From the NCBI GenBank assembly GCA_964503145.1, contig CAZCYV010000017.1, positions 16,718-80,717 on the forward strand: 64,000 nucleotides of DNA. Direction: 5' to 3'. Position numbers and translations under genes: made by a program. This document shows positions 1,823 through 43,327 of this stretch, piece by piece (within the stretch, counting starts at the first letter, position 1; the number at the start of each line of letters is the position of its first letter). The notes beneath the pieces are model-generated. The model saw only the letters and a program-made list of their open reading frames with translations, did no database searches and was not told the DNA's origin. The DNA comes from an uncultured Anaerolinea sp. GTDB lineage: Bacteria; Chloroflexota; Anaerolineae; Anaerolineales; UBA4823.

Positions 1823-3181
1823 TCAGGCCACTCGCAGCCCAGAAAGTCCGGCCGTGCTGTACAATCGCTCTTTGATCTCGATCACCTGGCGCCGCAAGCG
1901 ATCGTCTTGTTCCAGCATTTCGGCCACCTTCTCGCAGCCATACATGACTGTGGTGTGATCCCGCCCGCCCAAGGCTTCGCCAATCTGCGGCAGCGAGATG
2001 TTGGCCTCTTCGCGCATCAGGTACATGGCGATCTGGCGCGGCAGGGCGACCTGCCGGGAACGATCGCGCCCCAGCATGCTTTCCACGCTGATTCCAAACG
2101 CTTCCGCCACCCGGCGCACGATCTCATCCGGCTGAACTTCGCTGCGGCGAGGCAGCAGGTCAGCCAGCGCCGTCTCCACCAACTGCGGGGTGAGCGGCAG
2201 GCCGACCAGGTCGGCGAAGGCCGCCACACGCGCCAGGCCGCCTTCAAGCTCACGAATATTGGACTGCACCCGGCGCGCAATCAGCCCCATCAATTCGTCC
2301 GGCATCTTACAACCGATGCGTTCGGCCTTGGAGCGTAAGATGGCCAAGCGTGTCTCGAAATCTGGCGGCTGAATATCGGCGGTCAGCCCCCATTCGAACC
2401 GCGAACACAGGCGCTCTTCCAGCGTCACCAGCGCTTTAGGCGGACGATCGGAGGAAATCACGATTTGTTTATTTTGCCCGTGAAGGGTGTTGAACGTGTG
2501 AAAAAATTCTTCCTGCGTCGACTCCTTACCGGCGATGAACTGAATGTCATCCACCAGCAAAACATCCGTGTTGCGGTATTTTTCCCGGAACGCCTGAGTG
2601 GTGTGGGTGCGGATGGCATTGATCAGATCGTTGGTAAACTCTTCTGAGGAGACATACAACACTTGCAGGCCGCGCCGATGGCACAAGTTGCCAATCGCAT
2701 GCAGCAGATGGGTCTTACCCAGGCCCACGCCGCCGTACAGGAAAAGCGGATTATAAGCCTGGGCCGGTTTTTCCGCCACCGCCAGCGAAGCAGCGTGCGC
2801 CAATCGGTTGCTCGGGCCAACGACAAAATTTTCGAACGAATAGCGCGGGTTCAGACTGGGATTCGCCGTGTTGAAGCTCGTCTCTTCGGGTTCGAGGCGA
2901 TCTTCCTGCACGTTAGCTTCAGTTGAGTTATGCCCATTTTGCCAGACGACGAAGCGCACTTCCACTGTGCGGTCCATCATACCCGTCAGCAGGCGGGTCA
3001 CCGTGCTGGACAGACGACTTTGCAGCCAGTCCCGCGCGTAGGCATTGGGAACCCCCACAATAAAGCTACCGTCTTCGTAAGAGATAAATTCAGCGTTGCG
3101 GACCCAGGTATCAAAAGCGGCTTTTGGCATCTCCATTTGGAGTTGCCCTCGAGCGGCTTGCCAGGCCTGTTGTGCATTCAT
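1823..3181 (-). CDS. dnaA: Chromosomal replication initiator protein DnaA
   Basis: 452 aa with Walker A GGVGLGKTHLLHAIGN, AAA+ core and the C-terminal DNA-binding domain (RQIAMYLMRE, LPQIGEALGGRDHTTVMYGCEKV). Confidence 0.97.
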   Translation of the reverse strand: MNAQQAWQAARGQLQMEMPKAAFDTWVRNAEFISYEDGSFIVGVPNAYARDWLQSRLSSTVTRLLTGMMDRTVEVRFVVWQNGHNSTEANVQEDRLEPEETSFNTANPSLNPRYSFENFVVGPSNRLAHAASLAVAEKPAQAYNPLFLYGGVGLGKTHLLHAIGNLCHRRGLQVLYVSSEEFTNDLINAIRTHTTQAFREKYRNTDVLLVDDIQFIAGKESTQEEFFHTFNTLHGQNKQIVISSDRPPKALVTLEERLCSRFEWGLTADIQPPDFETRLAILRSKAERIGCKMPDELMGLIARRVQSNIRELEGGLARVAAFADLVGLPLTPQLVETALADLLPRRSEVQPDEIVRRVAEAFGISVESMLGRDRSRQVALPRQIAMYLMREEANISLPQIGEALGGRDHTTVMYGCEKVAEMLEQDDRLRRQVIEIKERLYSTAGLSGLRVA

Positions 3182-3878
3182 AGCCAGCTACCTCCTCACC
3201 TGTTCGGAAGATAGACAACAATACGCCACCGCATCCTCCGTCAGTCGCGGAGGGCGCCCAAAAAGGCTGTATTGCTTGTCTTTAAGTCACCTGAGAGATT
3301 TTGCTGCCCCTAGCGCCAATAAACTATGGGCTGACCAGTCTGATTGTAGCAGAATCTGCCAATCGTATGCAAGGTGTTTCCCCTACGCTCGCCTAAAAAA
3401 AAACAATACTTTAAGATTAACAAACGTTAAAGAGTATCCGCGCGCGCCGCACCTTTTACCTCAGTGCAGGCCAATTTCCTCGCGGCCCATGCATAGGGGA
3501 AGGCCATTCGGAGACCCCCAGATATAGCCTTTTGGGGGCCACAAACCACCTTACCCCCCATATCAACCCCCCCGACTCTTAAAATAACGGTTAAGGGGAA
3601 CTTAACTCGCTCGGAGATTAAAAACGACAGATTTGAGCGCTACCCAAGATCAGCGCCTTCGACGGCCTGCACCATCACCTTACGCTGGTCATGAGGATGA
3701 GACGAGAACGTTGATAAATATCCTACACACCGTTAATAGATTTCTTGCATTTTATGAGTATGCTATCTGAAGACAATAACAACTTCGAAGCCTGCGCCGG
3801 TTGGGTGCCAGTAAGCATCCATCTACCGGCGGGGCTCGAGTTTTGCGAAAGTTTTGAAAGAAAAAGGAGAATGCAAAG

Positions 3879-5771
<1,893 letters not shown>

Positions 5772-6299: not shown

Positions 6300-7658
6300 A
6301 TGACCAGCTTGCGTGATTTGCCCTCGGTGGATCAACTCCTGCAATCCCCGCACGGTCAGGACTGGACCGCCCACTACGGCCGACCGTTGACGTTGGAAGC
6401 GATTCGCCACGCGCTCAACGAAGCCCGCTCGCAATACGCCAGGCGCGCCAGCTTGCCCGAACGTGACATCCTGTTGCAAACGATCGAGCAGACCCTGCAA
6501 TCCTGGACGGCGCCCACTTTGCAGCCGGTAATCAACGCCACTGGCGTGATCTTGCACACCAATCTGGGCAGGGCGCCGCTCAGTCGGGCAGCCTTGCAGG
6601 CAATACAGGATGTTTCGCAGGGCTACTCAACGCTGGAATATGATCTGAAACAGGGAAAGCGGGGCTCCAGGCTGGTGCACACCGAAGCGCTGCTCACCCG
6701 TCTGACCGGCGCTCAGGCCGCCATGGTGGTGAACAACAACGCCGCCGCCGTGTTGCTCACCCTGACCGCCCTGGCCCGCCGCCGCGCCGTGGTGATCGCC
6801 CGCACCCAGCTTGTGGAAATCGGCGGCGGATTTCGCGTGCCCGACGTCATGAAGCAATCTGGCGCTCGCCTGCTCGAGGTGGGCACCACTAACCGCGTCC
6901 ACCTGGCGGATTACCAGGCCGCCCTGGAGGAAGCGCCAGCGCTGTTCTTGCGCGCCCATCGCTCCAATTTTCGCCTGCTGGGCTTCACCAGCGAGCCAGA
7001 ACTGGCGGAAATCGCCGCCGTTGCCCATCAGGCCAACCTGCCGCTTGTGGACGACCTGGGCTCTGGGGCGCTCCTCGATACTTCGCGTTTCGGCCTGGGC
7101 CACGAGCCGATGGTGCAGGAATCGCTGGCAGCCGGCGCCGATCTGGTGTGCTTCTCAGGCGACAAGCTGCTGGGAGGGCCGCAGGCTGGGATCATCGTCG
7201 GTCGCGCCGATCTGGTGGCCAAACTGAAGAAGCACCCCCTGGCGCGCGCCATTCGCGCCGATAAACTGTGCCTGGCAGCGCTGAGCGCCACGTTGCTGCA
7301 CTACCTGAAAGACGAAGCCGAGCGCGAAATACCTGTCTGGCGCATGATTGCAACGCCGGCCAAGCAGGTCTTTTCCCGAGCCGCTGCCTGGGCGGTGGCG
7401 CTGGGTCAGGGCGAAGTGATCTCTGGCGAGTCCACCGTGGGCGGTGGCAGCCTGCCCGGCGAGACGTTGCCGACCTACCTGCTGGCGCTCTCGACGCCCA
7501 GCCCCGATCGCCTGCTGGCCCGTCTGCGCCAGCAAAACCCGCCGGTGATCGCTCGCGTGCAAGACAACCGCCTGGTGCTCGATCCACGCACCGTGCTGCC
7601 CGAACAGGAAGAGGCCTTGCTGCACGCCCTGCAACAGGCGCTCAGAACAGACCCATAG
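6300..7658 (+). CDS. selA: L-seryl-tRNA(Sec) selenium transferase (selenocysteine synthase)
   Basis: 452 aa, colinear with E. coli SelA as I recall it: PVINATGVILHTNLGRAPL, YSTLEYDL, VNNNAAAVLL, VEIGGGFRVPDVM and the PLP-lysine motif FSGDKLLGGPQAGIIVGR. Confidence 0.93.
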   Translation: MTSLRDLPSVDQLLQSPHGQDWTAHYGRPLTLEAIRHALNEARSQYARRASLPERDILLQTIEQTLQSWTAPTLQPVINATGVILHTNLGRAPLSRAALQAIQDVSQGYSTLEYDLKQGKRGSRLVHTEALLTRLTGAQAAMVVNNNAAAVLLTLTALARRRAVVIARTQLVEIGGGFRVPDVMKQSGARLLEVGTTNRVHLADYQAALEEAPALFLRAHRSNFRLLGFTSEPELAEIAAVAHQANLPLVDDLGSGALLDTSRFGLGHEPMVQESLAAGADLVCFSGDKLLGGPQAGIIVGRADLVAKLKKHPLARAIRADKLCLAALSATLLHYLKDEAEREIPVWRMIATPAKQVFSRAAAWAVALGQGEVISGESTVGGGSLPGETLPTYLLALSTPSPDRLLARLRQQNPPVIARVQDNRLVLDPRTVLPEQEEALLHALQQALRTDP

Positions 7659-20148: not shown

Positions 20149-21180
20149 CTAATACACCAGGGGCGAGCGGGTGGTGAGCCGCTTGCGGAACACCCAATAG
20201 CTCCAGGCCTGATACGCCAGGACGATCGGCACGAAGATCAAAGCCACGATGGTCATTACCTGCAGCGTGTAGGGGCTGGATGAGGCGTTGTAGATGGTCA
20301 GACTATACTCCGGGTTGATCGAAGAGATCATCACCCTGGGGAACATGATCATAAACGCCGTGACCACAGAAAAGGCGATCGTCACTGCGGTGGTCAAAAA
20401 GGCCCAGCCATAGCGCTCTCTGCGCAAGAAGAAGCCGGTCAACAGGATGGACGCCATGCCGGTGATAGGGACAATCCCGGGATTTACGCCCAGGCGCTGA
20501 TAAATATCGGTGGCGAAATAAGTGGCAACCAACAACGCCAGCAACACCAGGACAACCGCCGGCCATAGACGGCTGGCGGCCGCCTGTGCCATCTCCTTTA
20601 TCTCGCCGTCGGTCTTAAGGCTAAGGAAGATCGCCCCATGCAAGGTAAAGGTCAACAAGGTCGCCACGCCTGCCAGTAAGGCGTAGGGGTTGAGCAGGTT
20701 AAAGAAACCGCCGACATAATTCATCTGCGCGTCGATGGGCATGCCGCGCACCAGGTTGCCGAATGCCACCCCCAGGAGCAGCGCCGGGATAGCGCTCCCC
20801 AGGAAGATCAACCAGTCCCACAGATTGCGCCAGCGGGGGTTTGCATCTTTGCTGCGGTACTCAAGGGCCACGCCACGCCCAATCAGGGCCAGCAAGAGCA
20901 GGAAAAGCGCCAGGTAAAAGCCGCTGAACAGCGTCGCATACCACTGCGGAAAAGCGGCGAAGGTCGCCCCACCAGCGGTCAGAAGCCAGACCTCATTGCC
21001 ATCCCAATGCGGGCCGATGGTATTGATCATCAAACGGCGCTTGACATCCACCGTCTCGGGGTCCTTGCTTCGGCTCAGGAAAGGCAACAGGATACCCACG
21101 CCAAAATCGAAGCCCTCCAGCACGAAGAAACCGATATACAGCACTGCGATGAGCACAAACCAGATGATGTTAAGATCCAT
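20149..21180 (-). CDS. cydB: Cytochrome bd ubiquinol/menaquinol oxidase subunit II
   Basis: 343 aa polytopic protein. The N-terminus MDLNIIWFVLIAVLYIGFFVLEGFDFGVGIL is typical of CydB. It follows cydA. Confidence 0.93.
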   Translation of the reverse strand: MDLNIIWFVLIAVLYIGFFVLEGFDFGVGILLPFLSRSKDPETVDVKRRLMINTIGPHWDGNEVWLLTAGGATFAAFPQWYATLFSGFYLALFLLLLALIGRGVALEYRSKDANPRWRNLWDWLIFLGSAIPALLLGVAFGNLVRGMPIDAQMNYVGGFFNLLNPYALLAGVATLLTFTLHGAIFLSLKTDGEIKEMAQAAASRLWPAVVLVLLALLVATYFATDIYQRLGVNPGIVPITGMASILLTGFFLRRERYGWAFLTTAVTIAFSVVTAFMIMFPRVMISSINPEYSLTIYNASSSPYTLQVMTIVALIFVPIVLAYQAWSYWVFRKRLTTRSPLVY

Positions 21181-36198: not shown

Positions 36199-37005
36199 TC
36201 AGCCTTCGATCCCCAACAGCTTGTTGAGCTTGTCCACGTCGAAGCTCAAGACGATATTTCCTCCGACGTCGAACACCGGGGTGGATTCGGGCCCCCCCGT
36301 CCAGGAACGCACACGCGCTGCGGCGGCGCGATCACGGGTGATATTGATCTCCTCAAAGGGGATATCGTTCACTTTCAAATAGGCGCGCGCCCGGCGGCAA
36401 GCAGGGCACCAATCGGTGCAATACAATACTACGCGCACCGGCTTCGGGGCATCTACAGGGCTGGGCAAAGCGCCAGACGCCGCCAGCGCCGGCTGAGCGG
36501 CTACCGCAGCGCCTTCGGGAACGATTTCCTGGGGCACAGGCACGCCTTCGATCTCTGCCAGCTCGCGGAACAGCACTTCGTTATCGGGTTGCTCGTCGAT
36601 GTTGTGCACGTCAACGTAACGGATGATACCGGTGCGATCCACGATGAAAATTGCCCGCTCGCTGTAACCCTCGGGGCGCAACACGCCATACTTCTGCGCC
36701 ACCTGCCCATGCGGCCAGAAATCCGACAACAGCGGATAGGTGATCCCCCCAAAGCTTTCTGCCCAGGCGCGCAGGCAATGCTTGCTATCTACGGAAATAC
36801 CCAGAACCTGGGTATTGACCCTCTCGAACCGGTCTAAGGCGACCTGATACGAGGGGATCTGCGCCGTTCATATCGGCGTCCAGGCCAGGGGGAAGAAAGC
36901 GATAACTACGTTTTTCCTGCCTAAGAAATCGCTCAGGCGAACTTTATCCCCAAGGTGTGACTCGAGGACAAAGTCAGGGGCATATTGCCCTACTCTCAGC
37001 GCCAT
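36199..37005 (-). CDS. Selenocysteine-containing AhpE-like peroxiredoxin fused to a glutaredoxin/NrdH-like domain (in-frame TGA at 36868-36870)
   Basis: My own translation of the minus strand from ATG 37005 (AAGGAG 6 nt upstream) gives MALRVGQYAPDFVLESHLGDKVRLSDFLGRKNVVIAFFPLAWTPI[TGA]TAQIPSYQVALDRFERVNTQVLGISVDSKHCLRAWAESFGGITYPLLSDFWPHG... This runs straight into ORF-track entry 36199..36729. The TGA occupies the peroxidatic Cys of the universal PxxxTxxC motif. The C-terminus carries a CPAC Grx-like domain (VVLYCTDWCPACRRA). Confidence 0.8.
36796..36857 (-). promoter_or_regulatory. Candidate bacterial SECIS region downstream of the in-frame UGA
   Basis: In the mRNA after the UGA there are two stem-loops. 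The first pairs CCCUC with GAGGG and encloses GGUC-GCCUUA-GACC, with its apical loop about 28-33 nt after the UGA. The second is a perfect 9-bp hairpin AAUACCCAG-GUU-CUGGGUAUU (36816-36796). Neither was scored with a SECIS model. Confidence 0.3.
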
Positions 37006-37196
37006 AATGCTCTCCTTGAGTGTCAGCAACAGGGCTTATTTTCTATTTTGTCAGAGGATAACAGAGAATCGCCTATACGACAAGGAAATTTGACAAGGCT
37101 TAACGTTTGCCAGGCGAAGGGCAACCGACGCCGATCCGCCCCCATTTTGGTGGCGGATCGGCTGAAAAAAAACCGATTCCCGGGGTGGCATCGGGC

Positions 37197-37247: not shown

Positions 37248-37321
37248 GCCCTCGTAGCTCAGTGGATTAGAGCACTTGCTTGCGGAGCAAGGGGTCGCGT
37301 GTTCGAGTCGCGCCGGGGGCG
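37248..37321 (+). tRNA. tRNA-Arg (anticodon GCG)
   Basis: Hand-folded cloverleaf. Acceptor stem GCCCUCG/CGGGGGC with one G-U pair, D-arm GCUC-AGUGGAUUA-GAGC with A20, anticodon arm CUUGC-UUGCGGA-GCAAG with anticodon GCG at 37282-37284. Variable loop GGGUC, T-arm GCGUG-UUCGAGU-CGCGC, discriminator G. CCA is not encoded. Confidence 0.9.
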
Positions 37322-37330
37322 CTCGATTTT

Positions 37331-38530
37331 TTAACGCATCTTCACCAGCCAGGCGCTGACGAAGCCAACCAGACACACCCCAATCAGCAGATTCCCTGCT
37401 GAGACCCATCCCAGACCATCCACCAATCGGCCGAACAACACCGGACCGACCAACTGCCCCAGATTCTGGCCGATCAGAACGACCGCCAGCCCCAACCCGG
37501 CCCATTGTGGTCTGCGCATTACCTCGGGCGCGGCGGCAAACGTCGCCGTAGGCACGGCTCCGGCGATCAGCCCTTGAACGATCATCACGGCGACGATCGC
37601 CCCGCCCTCGACGCGGAAGGGAAACACAAGCAGCACTGCCAGCGCCAGGAATGGGAGCGAAAACACAAGACGGCGCGAGCCAATGCGATCAGAAAACCAA
37701 CCCGCTAGCGGCGCAGAAAATAAGACCATTATCGTGCCGATGCTGGCGACAAAGGCAGCCCGCCCCAGAGCAAAACCCCTGACCTCGTTCAGGAAGGTGG
37801 GATAGTATGTGCCCAGCGAGACCAGAGCCAGGTTGAAGCAACCGAATTCGAGCGCCAGCAGCCAGATATTCCGGTTCGCCAGGGCGCTGCGCAGATCGAG
37901 CAGCTCAGTAGCAGATCGATCGCCGGCCTGCTGCGCTGGTGGACGGCGGACAAAAACGGCATAAGCGGCAAACATCAGCACGGCGAACCCCGCTCCAAAC
38001 CACCATACTGCCGACAAGCCCTGCCAGGCCGTCAAAACCGGCGCCAGGAGATACATCATCACCGTGCCAACCGGCACCCAGGTGGCCCAGATGCCCATCG
38101 GCCCACCCTGACGCTCCGGCGGGAACCACATGGCGATGGTAGCAGGCGCCACCACGCCGATCAGCCCAATCCCAATCCCCTCGATCACCCGGCCGGTCAT
38201 CAGGGCGCCATAGTTGTTCGATAGGGCGCCCACGCTCGCGCCTGCGGCCATGCAGCCCAGGGCGACCAGCCCAGTGAGCCGAGGGCCCCAGCCTTGCAGG
38301 ATGACCCCCGCCGGCAACGCCAGGATCAGGCCCACCAGCGCGATGACAGACATCAATGCGCCCGCCTGCGCCAGATCGATCTGCAAGGTCTGCATTAAGA
38401 CGGGCATGACCGGCGGGACTTTGAACTGATTTAGCGGCGCAGCTACGCTGGCAAAATACACCACCCATAAGATCACCCAGGCATAGGGCAGCACAACTGC
38501 TAAAGGTCTGGAGGGAACGTTTTCGCTCAT
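37331..38530 (-). CDS. MFS transporter
   Basis: Start moved to ATG 38530 (MSENVPSRPL). About 12 TM helices with an MFS loop 2-3-like motif (LPAGVILQGWGPRL). It is the last gene of the corrinoid methyltransferase operon. Confidence 0.85.
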   Translation of the reverse strand: MSENVPSRPLAVVLPYAWVILWVVYFASVAAPLNQFKVPPVMPVLMQTLQIDLAQAGALMSVIALVGLILALPAGVILQGWGPRLTGLVALGCMAAGASVGALSNNYGALMTGRVIEGIGIGLIGVVAPATIAMWFPPERQGGPMGIWATWVPVGTVMMYLLAPVLTAWQGLSAVWWFGAGFAVLMFAAYAVFVRRPPAQQAGDRSATELLDLRSALANRNIWLLALEFGCFNLALVSLGTYYPTFLNEVRGFALGRAAFVASIGTIMVLFSAPLAGWFSDRIGSRRLVFSLPFLALAVLLVFPFRVEGGAIVAVMIVQGLIAGAVPTATFAAAPEVMRRPQWAGLGLAVVLIGQNLGQLVGPVLFGRLVDGLGWVSAGNLLIGVCLVGFVSAWLVKMR

Positions 38531-38658
38531 GGGCGCAATTTCCCGGGGCGCGCCGCCAAAAGTCCGGGCGGTCGAGGCAAACCTTCTCCGCCCGGCAACG
38601 GCTCCGCGGCGCAGCTTGTAGCCGGGATCGCTCTGATCCCGGCAACAAGCCAATCAGG

Positions 38659-39999
38659 TTAATATTTGCCGTATTCCTTGCCCGCTTCGATCATCGCGTG
38701 CAGGTTCTCGGCCTCAGCGTCATCGAGCACGGCGCCGGTGGAGAGGATATAACCGCCGTCCTGTCCGACTTCGTCGATCAGCTTCTTGACGTAATCTCGG
38801 ACATCCGCCGGCGTGCCCGCTTTGAGCATGGAAACCGGCACATTGCCCCCGAAGCAAGCCCAGCCGCTGAAGCGCTTCTTCACTTCTTTCATGTCGGACT
38901 GGTCGAAGATCCAGATGGTCGAGCCTTTGGGGATATCGTAATCGGCGATGATGTCCAGGCGCTGGTTGTAGCCGCCCTCGACGAACAGATAGGGTACGAT
39001 GCCCTCTTCGATCAGCCCGATGACCACCGCCTTCAAGGTCGGCCAATAGAAGGTCTGGTAGTCCTTGTTGGACATGAACCCATCGGCGCCTTTGTGCAGC
39101 GGGATGAAGCAGATAGGGTTTTTGTTGGTGGTCGCAGAGCGCACGCCCATCTCGATGGCGATCGGCACCAACCGCTCCATCGCCGCCAGCAGCTTCTTGG
39201 GCTGGCGGAACATATCCAGCATGATGGCGCGCGTGCCCCGCAGCGTATCGCCCAGGGTATCGAATGGCGCTTTGGTGAAGCCGCCAATCAGCGGCGGGAT
39301 GCCAAGGGTGGTGATGGTGGCGGCGTCAACGGCCAGAGCAGCCTGAATCCATTCCATCGCCGCCTCGCCCGCCTGGATCAGTTTCTTGAAGGCTTCCAAC
39401 ACCGGCGGGATGCCCACCGGCACCATGAAGCCGCCAATGAAGGGCAGTTCGAGGATGTCCGTGAAGGGCGCCAGCATCGACCACGGAGCGAAAGCGCCGA
39501 AGATGCGCGGCAGGTAGGTGCGCATAAAGAAATCCGACGGATCGCGCAGGAATTGGTCGTAATCCTCGGCCTTCATGTATTCCGCTTCCACGCACTGATA
39601 AGGCGAGGTGGAGGGCACACCATGTCCGGGCCAGCGGTAGAGCTTGTAATCCAGCATCTCGAAGACTTTGCCTGGGCCGTAGATCGGCGCGCTGGAGAGC
39701 GAGTCGGGCTGGAAGTCCTGGTGATATTTTTTCAGCGCGTAGCCCAGTTTATCGTAATCGTACATCGCCTCTTCGGGCGTCACCCCCGTGTAGGCAAAGG
39801 GATAAAATCCGACGGTGGGGCACACAGGCACGCGAACCGGCTTCTTGAGTTGCACCACATCCTTGATCATTTGCACGCGCTCTTTGTAGGCGCGTTCAGC
39901 TTCAGGGCTGGCAAATTGCACACCCTCGGGCGAAAGCCAGGCCTGAAAGCGGGCTTCCTGTTTCTCGGCTGGGGTAAGTTTGCTCCAGTTAGCGTCCAT
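38659..39999 (-). CDS. Uroporphyrinogen-decarboxylase (URO-D) superfamily methyltransferase, the candidate substrate:corrinoid methyltransferase (MT1)
   Basis: 446 aa. The C-terminal region GGNVPVSMLKAGTPADVRDYVKKLIDEVGQDGGYILSTGAVLDDAEAENLHAMIEAG is typical of URO-D/MtaA-like TIM barrels. No HxC zinc motif is seen. It lies 3 nt downstream of the corrinoid protein gene. Confidence 0.75.
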   Translation of the reverse strand: MDANWSKLTPAEKQEARFQAWLSPEGVQFASPEAERAYKERVQMIKDVVQLKKPVRVPVCPTVGFYPFAYTGVTPEEAMYDYDKLGYALKKYHQDFQPDSLSSAPIYGPGKVFEMLDYKLYRWPGHGVPSTSPYQCVEAEYMKAEDYDQFLRDPSDFFMRTYLPRIFGAFAPWSMLAPFTDILELPFIGGFMVPVGIPPVLEAFKKLIQAGEAAMEWIQAALAVDAATITTLGIPPLIGGFTKAPFDTLGDTLRGTRAIMLDMFRQPKKLLAAMERLVPIAIEMGVRSATTNKNPICFIPLHKGADGFMSNKDYQTFYWPTLKAVVIGLIEEGIVPYLFVEGGYNQRLDIIADYDIPKGSTIWIFDQSDMKEVKKRFSGWACFGGNVPVSMLKAGTPADVRDYVKKLIDEVGQDGGYILSTGAVLDDAEAENLHAMIEAGKEYGKY

Positions 40000-40002
40000 G
40001 GG

Positions 40003-40629
40003 TCACACTCCATACCATCCCTTGGCCAGGTTGACGGCGGTCATGGCATCTTTACCGTAGGCGTCCGCCCCGGTGTATTCCTTGATTTGGGCGTCGATCT
40101 GCCCACCCCCGATCATCACTTTGACATCTGTCAGCCCGGCGGCCTTCAGCGCCTCCACGGTGGCCTTCATCGGGTCATAAGCCAGGGTCAGGAATCCGCT
40201 CAAGCCGACCACCTTTGCGCCGGTCTGCTTTGCCGCCTCGACGAATTTGGCCGGCGGCACATCCACCCCCAAATCGGTGACCTCGAAACCGTTCACATCC
40301 AGCATGAAGGCCACAATGTCCTTGGCGATGTCATGGATATCGCCTTCCACCGTGCCGATGACCACCTTGCCCAGCTTTGTCGCTTCGGCGGTCTGCTGCA
40401 GGCGCGGCTTGATGATTTCCGTGACCTGGCGGAGCATCTCGCCCGCCAGGATCAACTCGGGGATGAAACAATCCCCCGCTTCGAAGCGCTTGCCGATCAC
40501 TTCCATCGCCTGGCGGCAGTCCTCCAGCACCTCCAGCGGAGAGACCCCCGCCTCCAGCATCTGGTTGGTGATCTTCAATGCATCTTCCTCACGCATATCT
40601 GTGATCGCATCGATCAATTCTTGGGACAT
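40003..40629 (-). CDS. Corrinoid (cobalamin-binding) protein, MtaC/MtbC-like
   Basis: 208 aa with an N-terminal helical cap domain and a Rossmann B12-binding domain. The His-on motif is GTVEGDIHDIAKD (DxHxxA variant of DxHxxG), with GLSGFLT and MIGGGQ. Confidence 0.92.
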   Translation of the reverse strand: MSQELIDAITDMREEDALKITNQMLEAGVSPLEVLEDCRQAMEVIGKRFEAGDCFIPELILAGEMLRQVTEIIKPRLQQTAEATKLGKVVIGTVEGDIHDIAKDIVAFMLDVNGFEVTDLGVDVPPAKFVEAAKQTGAKVVGLSGFLTLAYDPMKATVEALKAAGLTDVKVMIGGGQIDAQIKEYTGADAYGKDAMTAVNLAKGWYGV

Positions 40630-40675
40630 GTTTTCGGAACTCCTTTCTTTTGCTTTGGGCCGATTAAAACAAGGT

Positions 40676-41482
40676 TTATTCGCCGGATCTATCGAAAATC
40701 CCTTTGCGGGAGGCGCGAATGAAGTTCATACAGTAGGCGTCTCGACCGAGCAGCAGTTCAGTGGTCAGAATGGCGGCCTGAATCTCACGGTCGAGCGGAT
40801 CCAAGATGGCGCTATCCAATCCATTCTGAATCGCCAGGCTCAGGAAGTAGCGATTGATAAAGGAGCGCGCCGGCAGGCCGAAAGAAATATTGCTCAGCCC
40901 GATCGTCAGGTGCGCCTGCGGGAACTCCTGACGCACCAGGCGCATGGTGTCGAAGGCGATCACGGCGCTCTGAGTGTTGGTGGAGATGGTCATCGCCAAG
41001 GGGTCGATGTACAGATGATCGTCCGGCACCCCCATCTGGCGCGCTTCTGCGACCACCTTGCAGATCACCTCGAAGCGTTTTTCGCTGGTCTCGGGGATCT
41101 TCTTCTCGTCCATCGCCAGGGCGATCACCGGACAACCATGTTCGGCGACGATCGGCAGGACATGGGTCAGCCGATCCGGCTCGCCGCTGATCGAATTGAT
41201 CATCGGCGTCTGCTTCACCGCTTCCACGGCGATTTTCAAAGCTTGCGGATTGGCGCTATCCAGACACAGAGGGGTGTCCACGACAGCCTGGATGGTATCG
41301 ATCAGCCAGAGCAGATCCTCCGGCTCCCGGCTGGGATGCGTGCCCGCGTTCACATCCAGCCAGGCCGCTCCGGCTTCGCTCTGCTTTTTGGCCAGGCCAG
41401 CAATGTAATCGGCGTCGCGCTCGGCGATGGCCTGGGCAACGCGCTTGCGAGTGCCATTGATTTTTTCTCCGATGATTTTCAT
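40676..41482 (-). CDS. Methyltetrahydrofolate:corrinoid methyltransferase (pterin-binding, MeTr/AcsE/MtgA-like), the candidate MT2
   Basis: 268 aa pterin-binding TIM barrel: IIGEKINGTRK, LDVNAG, PLCLDSANP, INSISGE, YIDPL and GLSNISFGLP. Confidence 0.85.
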   Translation of the reverse strand: MKIIGEKINGTRKRVAQAIAERDADYIAGLAKKQSEAGAAWLDVNAGTHPSREPEDLLWLIDTIQAVVDTPLCLDSANPQALKIAVEAVKQTPMINSISGEPDRLTHVLPIVAEHGCPVIALAMDEKKIPETSEKRFEVICKVVAEARQMGVPDDHLYIDPLAMTISTNTQSAVIAFDTMRLVRQEFPQAHLTIGLSNISFGLPARSFINRYFLSLAIQNGLDSAILDPLDREIQAAILTTELLLGRDAYCMNFIRASRKGIFDRSGE

Positions 41483-41488
41483 GCGACT

Positions 41489-43327
41489 TCAATTCTCCCT
41501 GGGTGGGAATAGCATTGCCAGCGCAAACTGGCGGCTGAAATTGGGATAGGTGGTCAATTCCAGGTAGCGTGTGCGGCGAGCGATTTCCTGGGCGCGCTGG
41601 CGGGCGGCGCGCGAGATCAGGATCCATTTCGCCCCCAACGCGGCGGCGTTGCCCACCTGGCGATAGCGGGCATTTGGCAGGTGAGGAAACAACCCCATGT
41701 CGATCGCATTCTGGATGTTCAGGAAAGAACCAAACGCTCCGGCGACGATCACCTGTTGCACCGCCTCTGGCGGCGTACCGGTGGTTTCCAGCAAAATGTT
41801 CAACCCTGCCTGGATGGCGCCTTTGGCAAGCTGTATCTCGTTGACATCCTCTTGGGTAATCGAGATATCCCGGCCGCTGCCGCTGCGTTTTGCGGGTACG
41901 AGCACAAATTCGAGCCCGTGATCGCCCTGGCGGATGCCATCGCGATCGCGTTGAAAGCGCCCTCGCGCGTTCAGGTATCCCGCCTTGTACAGTTCAGCCA
42001 CCGCATCCAGGATGCCCGAGCCGCATAGCCCTACGGCCGGCTGATCTTCCACAGTGGTCAACTCCGGGCCGCGAGCGCTGATGCGCACTTTCTCGATCGC
42101 CCCTGCAGCAGCGCGCATGCCATCCCGAATGTGAGCGCCCTCGAAAGCTGGACCCGAAGCGCAAGAGACCGCAGTCAGGAAGGGTTGCGCGGGCAGGCGC
42201 AGGCTGATCTCGGTATTAGTGCCGATGTCCAATCCCAGGGTTACCTGATCGCTCTGATCCAGGTCGCTCGCCAACACCATCGCCACATGGTCGGCGCCGA
42301 CGAATCCGCCAATGCTGGGCGGGATATGGATAGTTGCGCCGGGCGCCATCTCCAACCCAATCTCGCTGGCGGGCACATCCAGCGCCGAGGAGGCGGCCGC
42401 CACGTAGGGCGCAGTGGCGAGCTGGCGCACGGGGAATTGCAGCAACAGGTGGATCATCGCAGTATTGCCCACAATGCAGGCTTCTGCTACCTGCTCTCTG
42501 CTTGCGCCAGCCCGGCGCAGCAAGTCGCCAAGCATTTCGTCCAGCGCCTGGCGCACCTTTTCGGCCAGAAGTTGTCCGCCATTGGCATTGCGCACGACGT
42601 GGTTCAGGCGGCTGATCACATCCTCGCCGTAACTGATCTGCGGATTTGGCGCGCCGGCCGAGGCCAGATCGGCGCCTGTTTCCAGATCCACCAGGAAAGC
42701 GGCGATCTTGGTCGTCCCCAGGTCGATCGCCAGGCCGAGCGGCCTTTCGCCAGCTGGTCGCACGCCCAGGATCGCGCCATCGCGCACGAAGACGCTGGCG
42801 CGCCAGCCCGTCGAACGCAGCGCGCCCGGCAGGCTGCGGATCAGCGATGCGCTGGCCTGTAACCCGCTGAGGCCATACCGGCTTTCCAATTCATCTGTGA
42901 GGCGGGTCAGATCCGAGCGCACATCCTCTAGCTTCGGCGGTTCAAGCTCTACCGCATAAGCGCGCACCAGCGGATCGGGCGGCGCCGGGCGCAGGTTGCT
43001 TTCGACCTGCAATCGCTGGCCGGTAATCAGAGAATCTTTGGGGAGATGGAGTTTGACATCGCTCAAAACCCGGGCGCAACAGGCCAGCCGGTAACCGTTG
43101 AGCTGGTCGGCTTCGTCGAGCAAAAAGTTTTCGTCTGCATTCAGCGGGCTGACTTCCCCGGCAAGCAGCACCACCCGGCACTGCCCGCAATCCCCTTCAC
43201 CGCCGCAAGCCGAAGCCAGGTCGATGCCGGCCTGGCGGGCGGCATCCAGGATAGTCGCCCCCGCGGCCACCCGAACGCGTTTGCCCAGCGGCTGGAATTG
43301 AACCTGCAGCGTCTGCGGCGCGTCCAT
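41489..43327 (-). CDS. Reductive activator of corrinoid enzymes (RACE/RamA-like: N-terminal 2Fe-2S ferredoxin plus ASKHA ATPase)
   Basis: 612 aa with a plant-type ferredoxin motif (CGGEGDCGQCRV...YRLACCARV) followed by an actin/sugar-kinase-like fold (GLAIDLGTTKIAAFLVD, GLDIGTNTEI, LCGSGILDA). Confidence 0.85.
   Translation of the reverse strand: MDAPQTLQVQFQPLGKRVRVAAGATILDAARQAGIDLASACGGEGDCGQCRVVLLAGEVSPLNADENFLLDEADQLNGYRLACCARVLSDVKLHLPKDSLITGQRLQVESNLRPAPPDPLVRAYAVELEPPKLEDVRSDLTRLTDELESRYGLSGLQASASLIRSLPGALRSTGWRASVFVRDGAILGVRPAGERPLGLAIDLGTTKIAAFLVDLETGADLASAGAPNPQISYGEDVISRLNHVVRNANGGQLLAEKVRQALDEMLGDLLRRAGASREQVAEACIVGNTAMIHLLLQFPVRQLATAPYVAAASSALDVPASEIGLEMAPGATIHIPPSIGGFVGADHVAMVLASDLDQSDQVTLGLDIGTNTEISLRLPAQPFLTAVSCASGPAFEGAHIRDGMRAAAGAIEKVRISARGPELTTVEDQPAVGLCGSGILDAVAELYKAGYLNARGRFQRDRDGIRQGDHGLEFVLVPAKRSGSGRDISITQEDVNEIQLAKGAIQAGLNILLETTGTPPEAVQQVIVAGAFGSFLNIQNAIDMGLFPHLPNARYRQVGNAAALGAKWILISRAARQRAQEIARRTRYLELTTYPNFSRQFALAMLFPPREN

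Follow-up and report, generated by a model that had tools for sequence, protein, structure and literature searches.

Introduction

Peroxiredoxins (Prx) in which selenocysteine (Sec) occupies a TxxU motif are an experimentally established selenoprotein family and are among the most abundant selenoproteins in bacteria (PMC9312934, PMC1794560, PMC1088965). Selenoproteins have been catalogued on a large scale, BSepDB holding 57,630 entries (PMC13326102). In the Sec-peroxiredoxins, whose prototype is PrxU of Eubacterium acidaminophilum, Sec replaces the peroxidatic Cys of a T-x-x-U/C motif on an AhpC/TSA fold; Cys homologues are widespread, and a selenocysteine insertion sequence (SECIS) lies within the coding sequence (CDS), just past the UGA (PMC9312934, PMC1088965, PMC1794560). 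Two further systems are relevant here. AhpE of Mycobacterium tuberculosis (Rv2238c) is a 1-Cys Prx whose physiological reductant is mycoredoxin-1, a small CxxC protein of the glutaredoxin (Grx) fold, together with mycothiol, and for which small thiols or H2S can serve as further reductants (PMC8113037). The Haemophilus influenzae hybrid PGdx (PDB 1NM3) joins an N-terminal Prx of the Prx5 subfamily to a C-terminal Grx that serves as its built-in electron donor (PMC8113037). In this study, we analysed a 64,000-nucleotide stretch of the genome of an uncultured Anaerolinea sp. (Chloroflexota; assembly GCA_964503145.1, contig CAZCYV010000017.1, positions 16,718 to 80,717; hereafter, the window). 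A locus on its minus strand (36199..37005) very probably constitutes one functional Sec-encoding gene with a 268-residue product, in which an AhpE-like Prx domain with Sec at residue 46 is followed by a linker and a Grx-like domain. This protein shares with the known bacterial Sec-peroxiredoxins the features listed above and with PGdx the order of the two domains; AhpE is its closest solved relative by sequence and by fold.

Gene structure and reading frame

The complete CDS starts at the ATG at 37005-37003, which is preceded by the Shine-Dalgarno sequence AAGGAG (37012..37017, minus strand) with a 6-nt spacer, and the frame runs to its own stop codon, TGA, at 36201-36199. The sole in-frame interruption is the TGA at 36870-36868. 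The open reading frame (ORF) list of the window contains only a 176-aa piece of this gene (36199..36729), which begins at a TTG that is the codon for Leu93 of the long frame. The first-pass annotation, which was made from the sequence alone, had recovered the long frame with its start, ribosome-binding site and single TGA exactly as we find them, and the N- and C-terminal sequences that it quoted were also exact. Its product length of 268 aa is correct as well, but its placement of Sec at residue 45 is not: the distance from the start to the TGA, (37005-36870)/3, is 45 codons, and the TGA is therefore codon 46. When Cys is put at this codon, the Pfam AhpC-TSA domain crosses the TGA without a break, matching residues 5-131.

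Conservation of the UGA codon in orthologues

A scan of DNA with one genome per species yielded 80 loci with full-length orthologous frames, all in Chloroflexota and mostly in Anaerolineae, with identities down to 52%. The fusion of Prx and Grx domains is kept in all 80, and the clade with Sec-type fusions is confined to Chloroflexota in the genomes sampled. At codon 46, TGA is present in 76 of the 80 species-level genomes, a recurrence greatly exceeding what chance would produce, and TGC or TGT in the remaining four. With five sequences that were fetched additionally, the set of Cys-type homologues comprises nine members, and the distant full-length relatives found by protein search (∼52% identity) also have Cys in this column. 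On both sides of codon 46 the motif F-P-L-A-W-T-P-[VI]-U/C-[TS]-x-Q-I is conserved, and in almost all orthologues an ATG with a GGAG-type ribosome-binding site lies 44-45 codons 5' of the TGA. Thus, the UGA is aligned with Cys and flanked by conserved sequence, the pattern of a Sec-encoding gene. The view that the TGA falls on the catalytic Cys of the PxxxTxxC motif was borne out, with the three motif positions being P39, T43 and U46, and the check that had been suggested, for Cys at this column in homologues, gave a positive answer. The presence of the TGA at one and the same codon in 76 species rules out a sequencing error.

Substitution patterns lead to the same gene structure. We calculated the ratio of nonsynonymous to synonymous differences per site (pN/pS) from Nei-Gojobori counts for the six closest sequences and for all 75. 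It was 0.16 and 0.35, respectively, for codons 1-45 and 0.14 and 0.27 for codons 47-150, so that purifying selection on the 45 codons 5' of the TGA is about as strong as that on the rest of the gene. The similarity of the two values indicates that the upstream codons are translated and are constrained like the remaining enzyme. The N-terminal half is therefore not decayed in the orthologues, as it would be in a pseudogene. The linker between the two domains gave 0.54 and 0.73, as compared with 0.14-0.42 for the domains.

In public records, the gene is systematically mis-called, as the first-pass annotation had anticipated for standard gene callers. The nearest relatives found in the protein search (66-86% identity) are all N-terminally truncated, being ∼167-212 aa long and beginning just past the TGA column, and their internal starts vary among ATG, GTG and TTG at different positions. 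Truncated orthologues carry the product name 'glutaredoxin' at the Joint Genome Institute (JGI). In two long assemblies, a separate 45-aa ORF with an AhpC-TSA match lies directly before the truncated gene. The mis-calls thus take the form either of a pair of a 45-aa and a ∼203-aa product or of a single protein with W or G at the Sec site. The records of the latter form have Trp (P0010, P0015, P0036 and P0044) or Gly (P0019) in the U46 column, probably because genes in these metagenomes were called under genetic code 4 or 25. Such records would mislead homology-based annotation.

The peroxiredoxin domain

The AhpC/TSA domain (36613..36993, minus strand) scores 132.5 bits against the Pfam PF00578 cut-off of 26 and covers positions 1-124 of the 124-position model. 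The domain is thus full length, and it contains both the PxxxTxxC motif and the conserved Arg of the family; P39, T43, U46 and R117 are each conserved in at least 95% of the sequences. Its best solved relatives are structures of M. tuberculosis AhpE (E=2.6e-30, 106-109 bits), with any other Prx reaching at most 83 bits, and U46 is aligned with Cys45 of AhpE (FPLAWTPIU versus FPLAFTGIC). An AlphaFold model was made of a natural Cys homologue, P0059, which is 55% identical (pLDDT 91.4, pTM 0.79), and a Foldseek search with this model also returned AhpE first, with template modelling (TM) scores of 0.88-0.91 and a root-mean-square deviation (rmsd) of 1.8 A. Of the six Prx subfamilies, AhpE is therefore the closest to the domain both by sequence and by fold, in agreement with the AhpE-like label given to it earlier. 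The PrxU equivalog of NCBIfam (NF040737) gave only 61.8 bits against a cut-off of 270, and no NCBIfam model reached its cut-off on the fusion protein.

RNA structure after the UGA

Two adjacent hairpins can be formed by the RNA that follows the UGA. Together they make up a SECIS-like element. Hairpin 1 (36817..36859, minus strand) begins 8 nt after the UGA and consists of ∼17 pairs with internal mismatches, with GCCUUA as the apical loop in the window. Hairpin 2 (36796..36816, minus strand) abuts it and has an 8-9 bp stem closed by a GUU triloop, AAUACCCAG-GUU-CUGGGUAUU. The 84-nt fold of the window sequence has an energy of -35.1 kcal/mol (z = -3.8). A stem-loop directly 3' of the UGA and a small G-containing apical loop, as expected of a bacterial SECIS, are thus both present.

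Both hairpins are supported by covariation. For hairpin 1, pairs were counted in the register-72 subset, that is, the 58 sequences that share the main register: 79% of cells are paired, a share that drops to 55% or less if the partner is shifted along. Compensatory changes are seen at pair 21-51, which joins the wobble bases of Pro51 and Glu/Asp61 and occurs as UA in 18 sequences, CG in 14, AU in 8 and GC in 4. In hairpin 2, the eight core pairs are ∼99% paired in 77 orthologues, and two of them show compensatory changes, UA41/GC34 and AU55/GC20; in the latter, a change from Thr to Val or Ala is matched by a synonymous change from GGU to GGC. Each of the 77 TGA sequences in the alignment has a GUN triloop, with G67 and T68 invariant. 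Synonymous-codon entropy is 0.56-0.67 at codons 47-72 as compared with 0.76-0.85 elsewhere, and several codons in hairpin 2 are almost frozen (ACC for Thr65 in 54/55 sequences, CAG for Gln66 in 72/73 and CTG for Leu68 in 70/75).

The structures are specific to the UGA form of the gene. Eight of the nine Cys-type homologues are devoid of both, hairpin 1 being weak or absent and hairpin 2 absent; the energies in these homologues range from -3 to -13 kcal/mol for hairpin 1, as compared with a mean of -20 otherwise, and from 0 to -6 kcal/mol for hairpin 2, as compared with -11. The remaining Cys-type locus, L062, which has TGC at this codon, keeps both hairpins (2807-2896, plus strand; -19.2 and -9.3 kcal/mol), which suggests that Sec was replaced by Cys recently at this locus. 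Every TGA locus was matched by a covariance model of the element, and the Cys loci gave a weak match or none, a result that is dominated by coding conservation and does not count as independent evidence. At gathering thresholds, Rfam matched only a tRNA-Arg in the window, with no curated family at the UGA and no bacterial SECIS family returned. An additional helix of 3-4 bp that could close both hairpins (columns 7-10 with 80-83) is a possible pairing, but it was dropped, as covariation gave it no support.

The layout can be compared with the SECIS of Escherichia coli fdhF, the sequence of which we verified and folded. Both are hairpins within the CDS after the UGA, with a G/C-rich top and a small loop containing G-U, and their tops are similar (GCA-GGUC-UGC in fdhF and CCAG-GUN-CUGG in hairpin 2). 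In fdhF, however, a single hairpin starts at the UGA, whereas the prx gene has two: hairpin 1 is in the usual SECIS position and its top is variable in sequence, while the fdhF-like top, with the invariant G-U loop on a G/C-rich stem, belongs to hairpin 2. The same two-hairpin layout and the CAG-GUN-CUG top are shared by the Sec-type selD gene of a relative (locus L125), in which the UGA is followed by a 12-nt linker and a hairpin of 5 bp; 1 nt separates the latter from a second hairpin, of 7 bp, with the sequence GGCGCAG-GUC-CUGCGUC. The UGA context of a second Sec-type selD (locus L028) folds no better than shuffled sequences, and so the L125 gene alone supports a layout common to different genes. 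On the basis of the fdhF-like top of hairpin 2 and the L125 layout, we retain as a possible but doubtful interpretation that a bipartite SECIS is typical of this lineage, with hairpin 2 bound by SelB and hairpin 1 acting as a folded spacer, and that, with the fused redoxin, it belongs to a clade-wide, self-contained selenoperoxidase. Hairpin 1 would then set hairpin 2 at an effective distance of ∼10 nt from the UGA. If this is true, the recoding element is atypical and is perhaps left unscored by current SECIS models.

Selenocysteine machinery

The window encodes selA, the L-seryl-tRNA(Sec) selenium transferase gene (6300..7658, plus strand), as had been noted before; the NCBIfam model TIGR00474 matches it over its full length (554.7 bits; cut-off, 267.9). 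The gene lies in the neighbourhood of the replication origin, with dnaA at 1823-3181 (minus strand) and dnaK at 3879-5771, and it is followed 3' by genes for an M24 peptidase and then tsaD rather than by selB; this order is repeated in the relative loci L081 and L142.

For the rest of the machinery, we examined 80 selA loci of relatives. Locus L142, which has the selA, M24-peptidase, tsaD order of the window, contains a tRNA-Sec gene with anticodon TCA (20922-21017, minus strand), 9.5 kb from selA, that was detected both by ARAGORN and by Rfam RF01852 (65.2 bits against a threshold of 47). A tblastn search with E. coli SelD identified selD in L028 and L125, and both genes have TGA at the position equivalent to Cys17, in the motif CAG-U-ASK. 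In L028, which is from a Thermoflexales metagenome-assembled genome, selD (3779-4825, plus strand) starts ∼30 nt beyond the stop codon of the orthologous prx(U)-grx gene; the in-frame TGA of selD is at 3824-3826 (SACAG-U-ASK), and GTG 3860 is the start that gene callers would choose. In L125, the Sec-containing selD (6529-7560, minus strand) is 4.5 kb from selA. Given the tRNA-Sec and Sec-type selD genes in relatives, the lineage is Sec-competent; for this genome, selA alone is shown by the window and 10 kb on each side of it.

We also scanned the window for other pairs of ORFs that are bridged by a single TGA and found no second selenoprotein gene. The TGA-joined pairs that comprise real genes are adjacent genes in frame by chance (cydA/cydB, RACo/pterin-binding, B12-binding/URO-D and others).

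The linker and the glutaredoxin-like domain

Approximately residues 151-188 (36442..36555, minus strand) form an Ala/Pro-rich linker that varies in length and sequence among orthologues; the linker proposed earlier is thus real, and it is the fast-evolving part of the protein. The domain that follows matches Pfam PF00462 at residues 192-251 (36253..36432, minus strand; 51.9 bits against a cut-off of 22.9) and extends to residue 268. It contains C196-T-D-W-C200-P-A-C203 (36397..36420, minus strand), a CPAC dithiol preceded by a third Cys, and none of the three varies in any of the 79 sequences. The CxxC is located at the N-terminus of helix 1, and the strand-helix pattern in the model fits a Grx fold. 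Its nearest solved chains are the small CPxC redoxins 7c10 and 3zit and mycoredoxin-1 (2lqo). Scores for the NCBIfam subfamilies are all below their cut-offs (YruB, 69.7 versus 88.55; mycoredoxin, 47.2 versus 89.5; NrdH, 26 versus 85.75). Of the earlier designation 'Grx/NrdH-like', therefore, the Grx fold with an invariant CPxC stands, whereas the NrdH label is narrower than these scores allow. The invariant third Cys generates a C196-x3-C200-x2-C203 spacing. Such C-x3-C-x2-C spacing is also typical of the ligands of Fe-S clusters.

Alternative explanations

A nonsense mutation that made a pseudogene of an ordinary Cys-peroxiredoxin, or a base miscalled in sequencing or assembly, would agree with the truncated 'glutaredoxin' that gene callers see at the locus. 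The probability of this explanation is negligible, however, because the TGA is the same in 76 of 80 independent species genomes, the start codons have been retained together with their ribosome-binding sites, the codons before the TGA are under purifying selection as strong as that on the codons after it, and the UGA-specific hairpins covary. An alternative genetic code in which UGA specifies Trp (code 4) or Gly (code 25) is just as remote, despite the W or G residues in the five protein records described above. The residue found in homologues is the catalytic Cys and never a sense-encoded W or G, either of which would kill a peroxiredoxin at this position, and the lineage has selA, tRNA-Sec and Sec-type selD. 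Moreover, TGA ends the prx gene itself and several neighbours, with well-defined genes downstream, so that UGA does not encode one of the standard amino acids here. Together, these data rule out a pseudogene, a sequencing error and an alternative code. It is also highly improbable that the UGA mostly terminates translation, yielding a 45-aa peptide and an internally initiated, stand-alone glutaredoxin. Start-type codons that gene callers use are indeed present in frame downstream, and bacterial Sec insertion is never fully efficient, so that some truncated peptide is likely to be made. Nevertheless, the internal starts differ among orthologues (ATG, GTG or TTG, giving 167-212 aa), the Prx fold is incomplete in either half alone, purifying selection acts equally on the two halves, and the hairpins are specific to the UGA.

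A stronger competitor, although in our view still rather unlikely, is that the protein contains Sec but that its Grx-like domain has a role other than recycling it, for example redox relay to other targets or metal binding through C196-x3-C200-x2-C203, while an external thiol or thioredoxin reduces the selenenic acid. A third invariant Cys would be superfluous for simple dithiol exchange, the mostly conserved Cys77 could resolve the Sec-OH within the Prx domain, and AhpE is reduced by small thiols or H2S as well (PMC8113037). On the other hand, the fusion and the invariant CPxC are kept in all 80 loci, and both the H. influenzae Prx5-Grx hybrid and the reduction of AhpE by mycoredoxin-1 are precedents for recycling by the Grx-like domain (PMC8113037).

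Several observations weigh against a Sec-encoding, self-recycling enzyme. Sec insertion at the UGA is what we infer from comparative sequence analysis, and the electron path through the Grx-like domain is drawn by analogy only. In the window and the 10-kb flanks on either side, which were taken from a JGI metagenome contig, none of selB, selD and tRNA-Sec was found, and a tblastn search with E. coli SelB gave no match in the window or in any fetched locus of a relative. Regarding the RNA, the apical loop sequence of hairpin 1 is not conserved, and RNAalifold returned no consensus structure from the plain ungapped alignment of 75 sequences; the latter is because hairpin 1 pairs in two registers, represented by 58 and 17 sequences. 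Hairpin 2 is ∼53 nt from the UGA and its top is ∼60 nt after it, a distance that exceeds the usual rule for bacterial SECIS elements. As for recycling, the Prx domain has one further Cys, Cys77, which 67 of the 79 sequences share and the others replace by S or T. It is therefore not essential, but in most members it could serve as the resolving residue, and the recycling scheme would then be a different one.

Proposed mechanism

Translation would begin at ATG 37005. Sec would be delivered to the UGA (36870-36868) as Sec-tRNA(Sec) by an elongation factor specific for it, directed by the downstream RNA with its 8-nt linker, long hairpin and abutting 8-9 bp hairpin with a GUN triloop. Sec46 of the AhpE-type, 1-Cys-like Prx domain would then reduce a hydroperoxide, being itself oxidized to the selenenic acid. 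Most likely, Cys200 of the CPAC domain of the same or the partner subunit would attack the selenenic acid to form a Sec46-Cys200 selenenylsulfide, which Cys203 would resolve to give a Cys200-Cys203 disulfide; an external reductant would finally reduce this disulfide. Self-recycling of Sec46 by the Grx-like domain is suggested by analogy, because AhpE is reduced by mycoredoxin-1 and mycothiol and the H. influenzae hybrid provides a precedent.

Gene neighbourhood

A corrinoid-dependent methyltransferase cluster (37331-43327, minus strand) lies directly upstream of the prx gene. It consists of genes for a RACo-type activase (41489-43327), a pterin-binding protein (40676-41482), a B12-binding protein (40003-40629), a URO-D/MtaA-like protein (38659-39999) and a major facilitator superfamily (MFS) transporter (37331-38653), all on the minus strand. 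A gene for tRNA-Arg(GCG) (37248-37322, plus strand) is located between the cluster and the prx gene. Gene neighbourhoods vary among the orthologues, two of which have coaBC upstream, and they have no conserved reductase partner in common. In two of the relative loci, we also observed a release factor gene (L085:2816-3879 and L086:2906-3670), which in L085 is called as two pieces with PCRF and RF-1 domains, respectively. This split call may be due to the programmed +1 frameshift of prfB or to an assembly error.

Significance and comparison with known systems

The analysis recovers the true product of a gene whose annotation is wrong in hundreds of genomes and metagenomes of Anaerolineae and other Chloroflexota, and it implies that selenium-dependent peroxide defence would be nearly universal in this abundant group of anaerobic digesters and sediments. 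In the protein, a Sec-peroxiredoxin and its presumed reductant are joined naturally in one chain, and the close Cys-type relatives allow Sec and Cys to be compared. In addition, the 77 UGA contexts, with the nine Cys-type sequences as controls, form a clean training set for models of bacterial SECIS elements, and the same data set would allow the two-hairpin element to be tested as a functional SECIS variant. In a literature search, we found neither a fusion of an AhpE-type Prx(U) with a Grx nor any selenoprotein of Anaerolineae described; BSepDB, which lay outside this search, may already list such proteins as 'Prx'.

Compared with the bacterial Sec-peroxiredoxins described so far, the window protein is AhpE-like rather than PrxU- or Bcp-like, has a fused domain of the Grx fold and belongs to a Chloroflexota clade. 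M. tuberculosis AhpE differs from it in having Cys45 instead of Sec and in its mycothiol-dependent reductant, which resides on a separate polypeptide, whereas here the redoxin is fused; mycoredoxin-1, that separate reductant (PMC8113037), is among the nearest solved relatives of the fused domain. H. influenzae PGdx, in turn, is a glutathione-dependent Cys enzyme of the Prx5 subfamily. It superposes poorly (TM 0.47-0.49, rmsd 11 A, 21% identity), and the window protein, whose Prx domain is AhpE-like, is not a hybrid of the Prx5-Grx type; because of the poor superposition, the Prx(U)-Grx fusion looks independent of the PGdx fusion. Since TxxU peroxiredoxins and Prx-Grx hybrids are both known, the locus does not represent a new kind of system, and of its parts only the two-hairpin recoding element may be out of the ordinary. 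What is new is the clade-wide and systematically mis-annotated AhpE-type Prx(U)-Grx protein.

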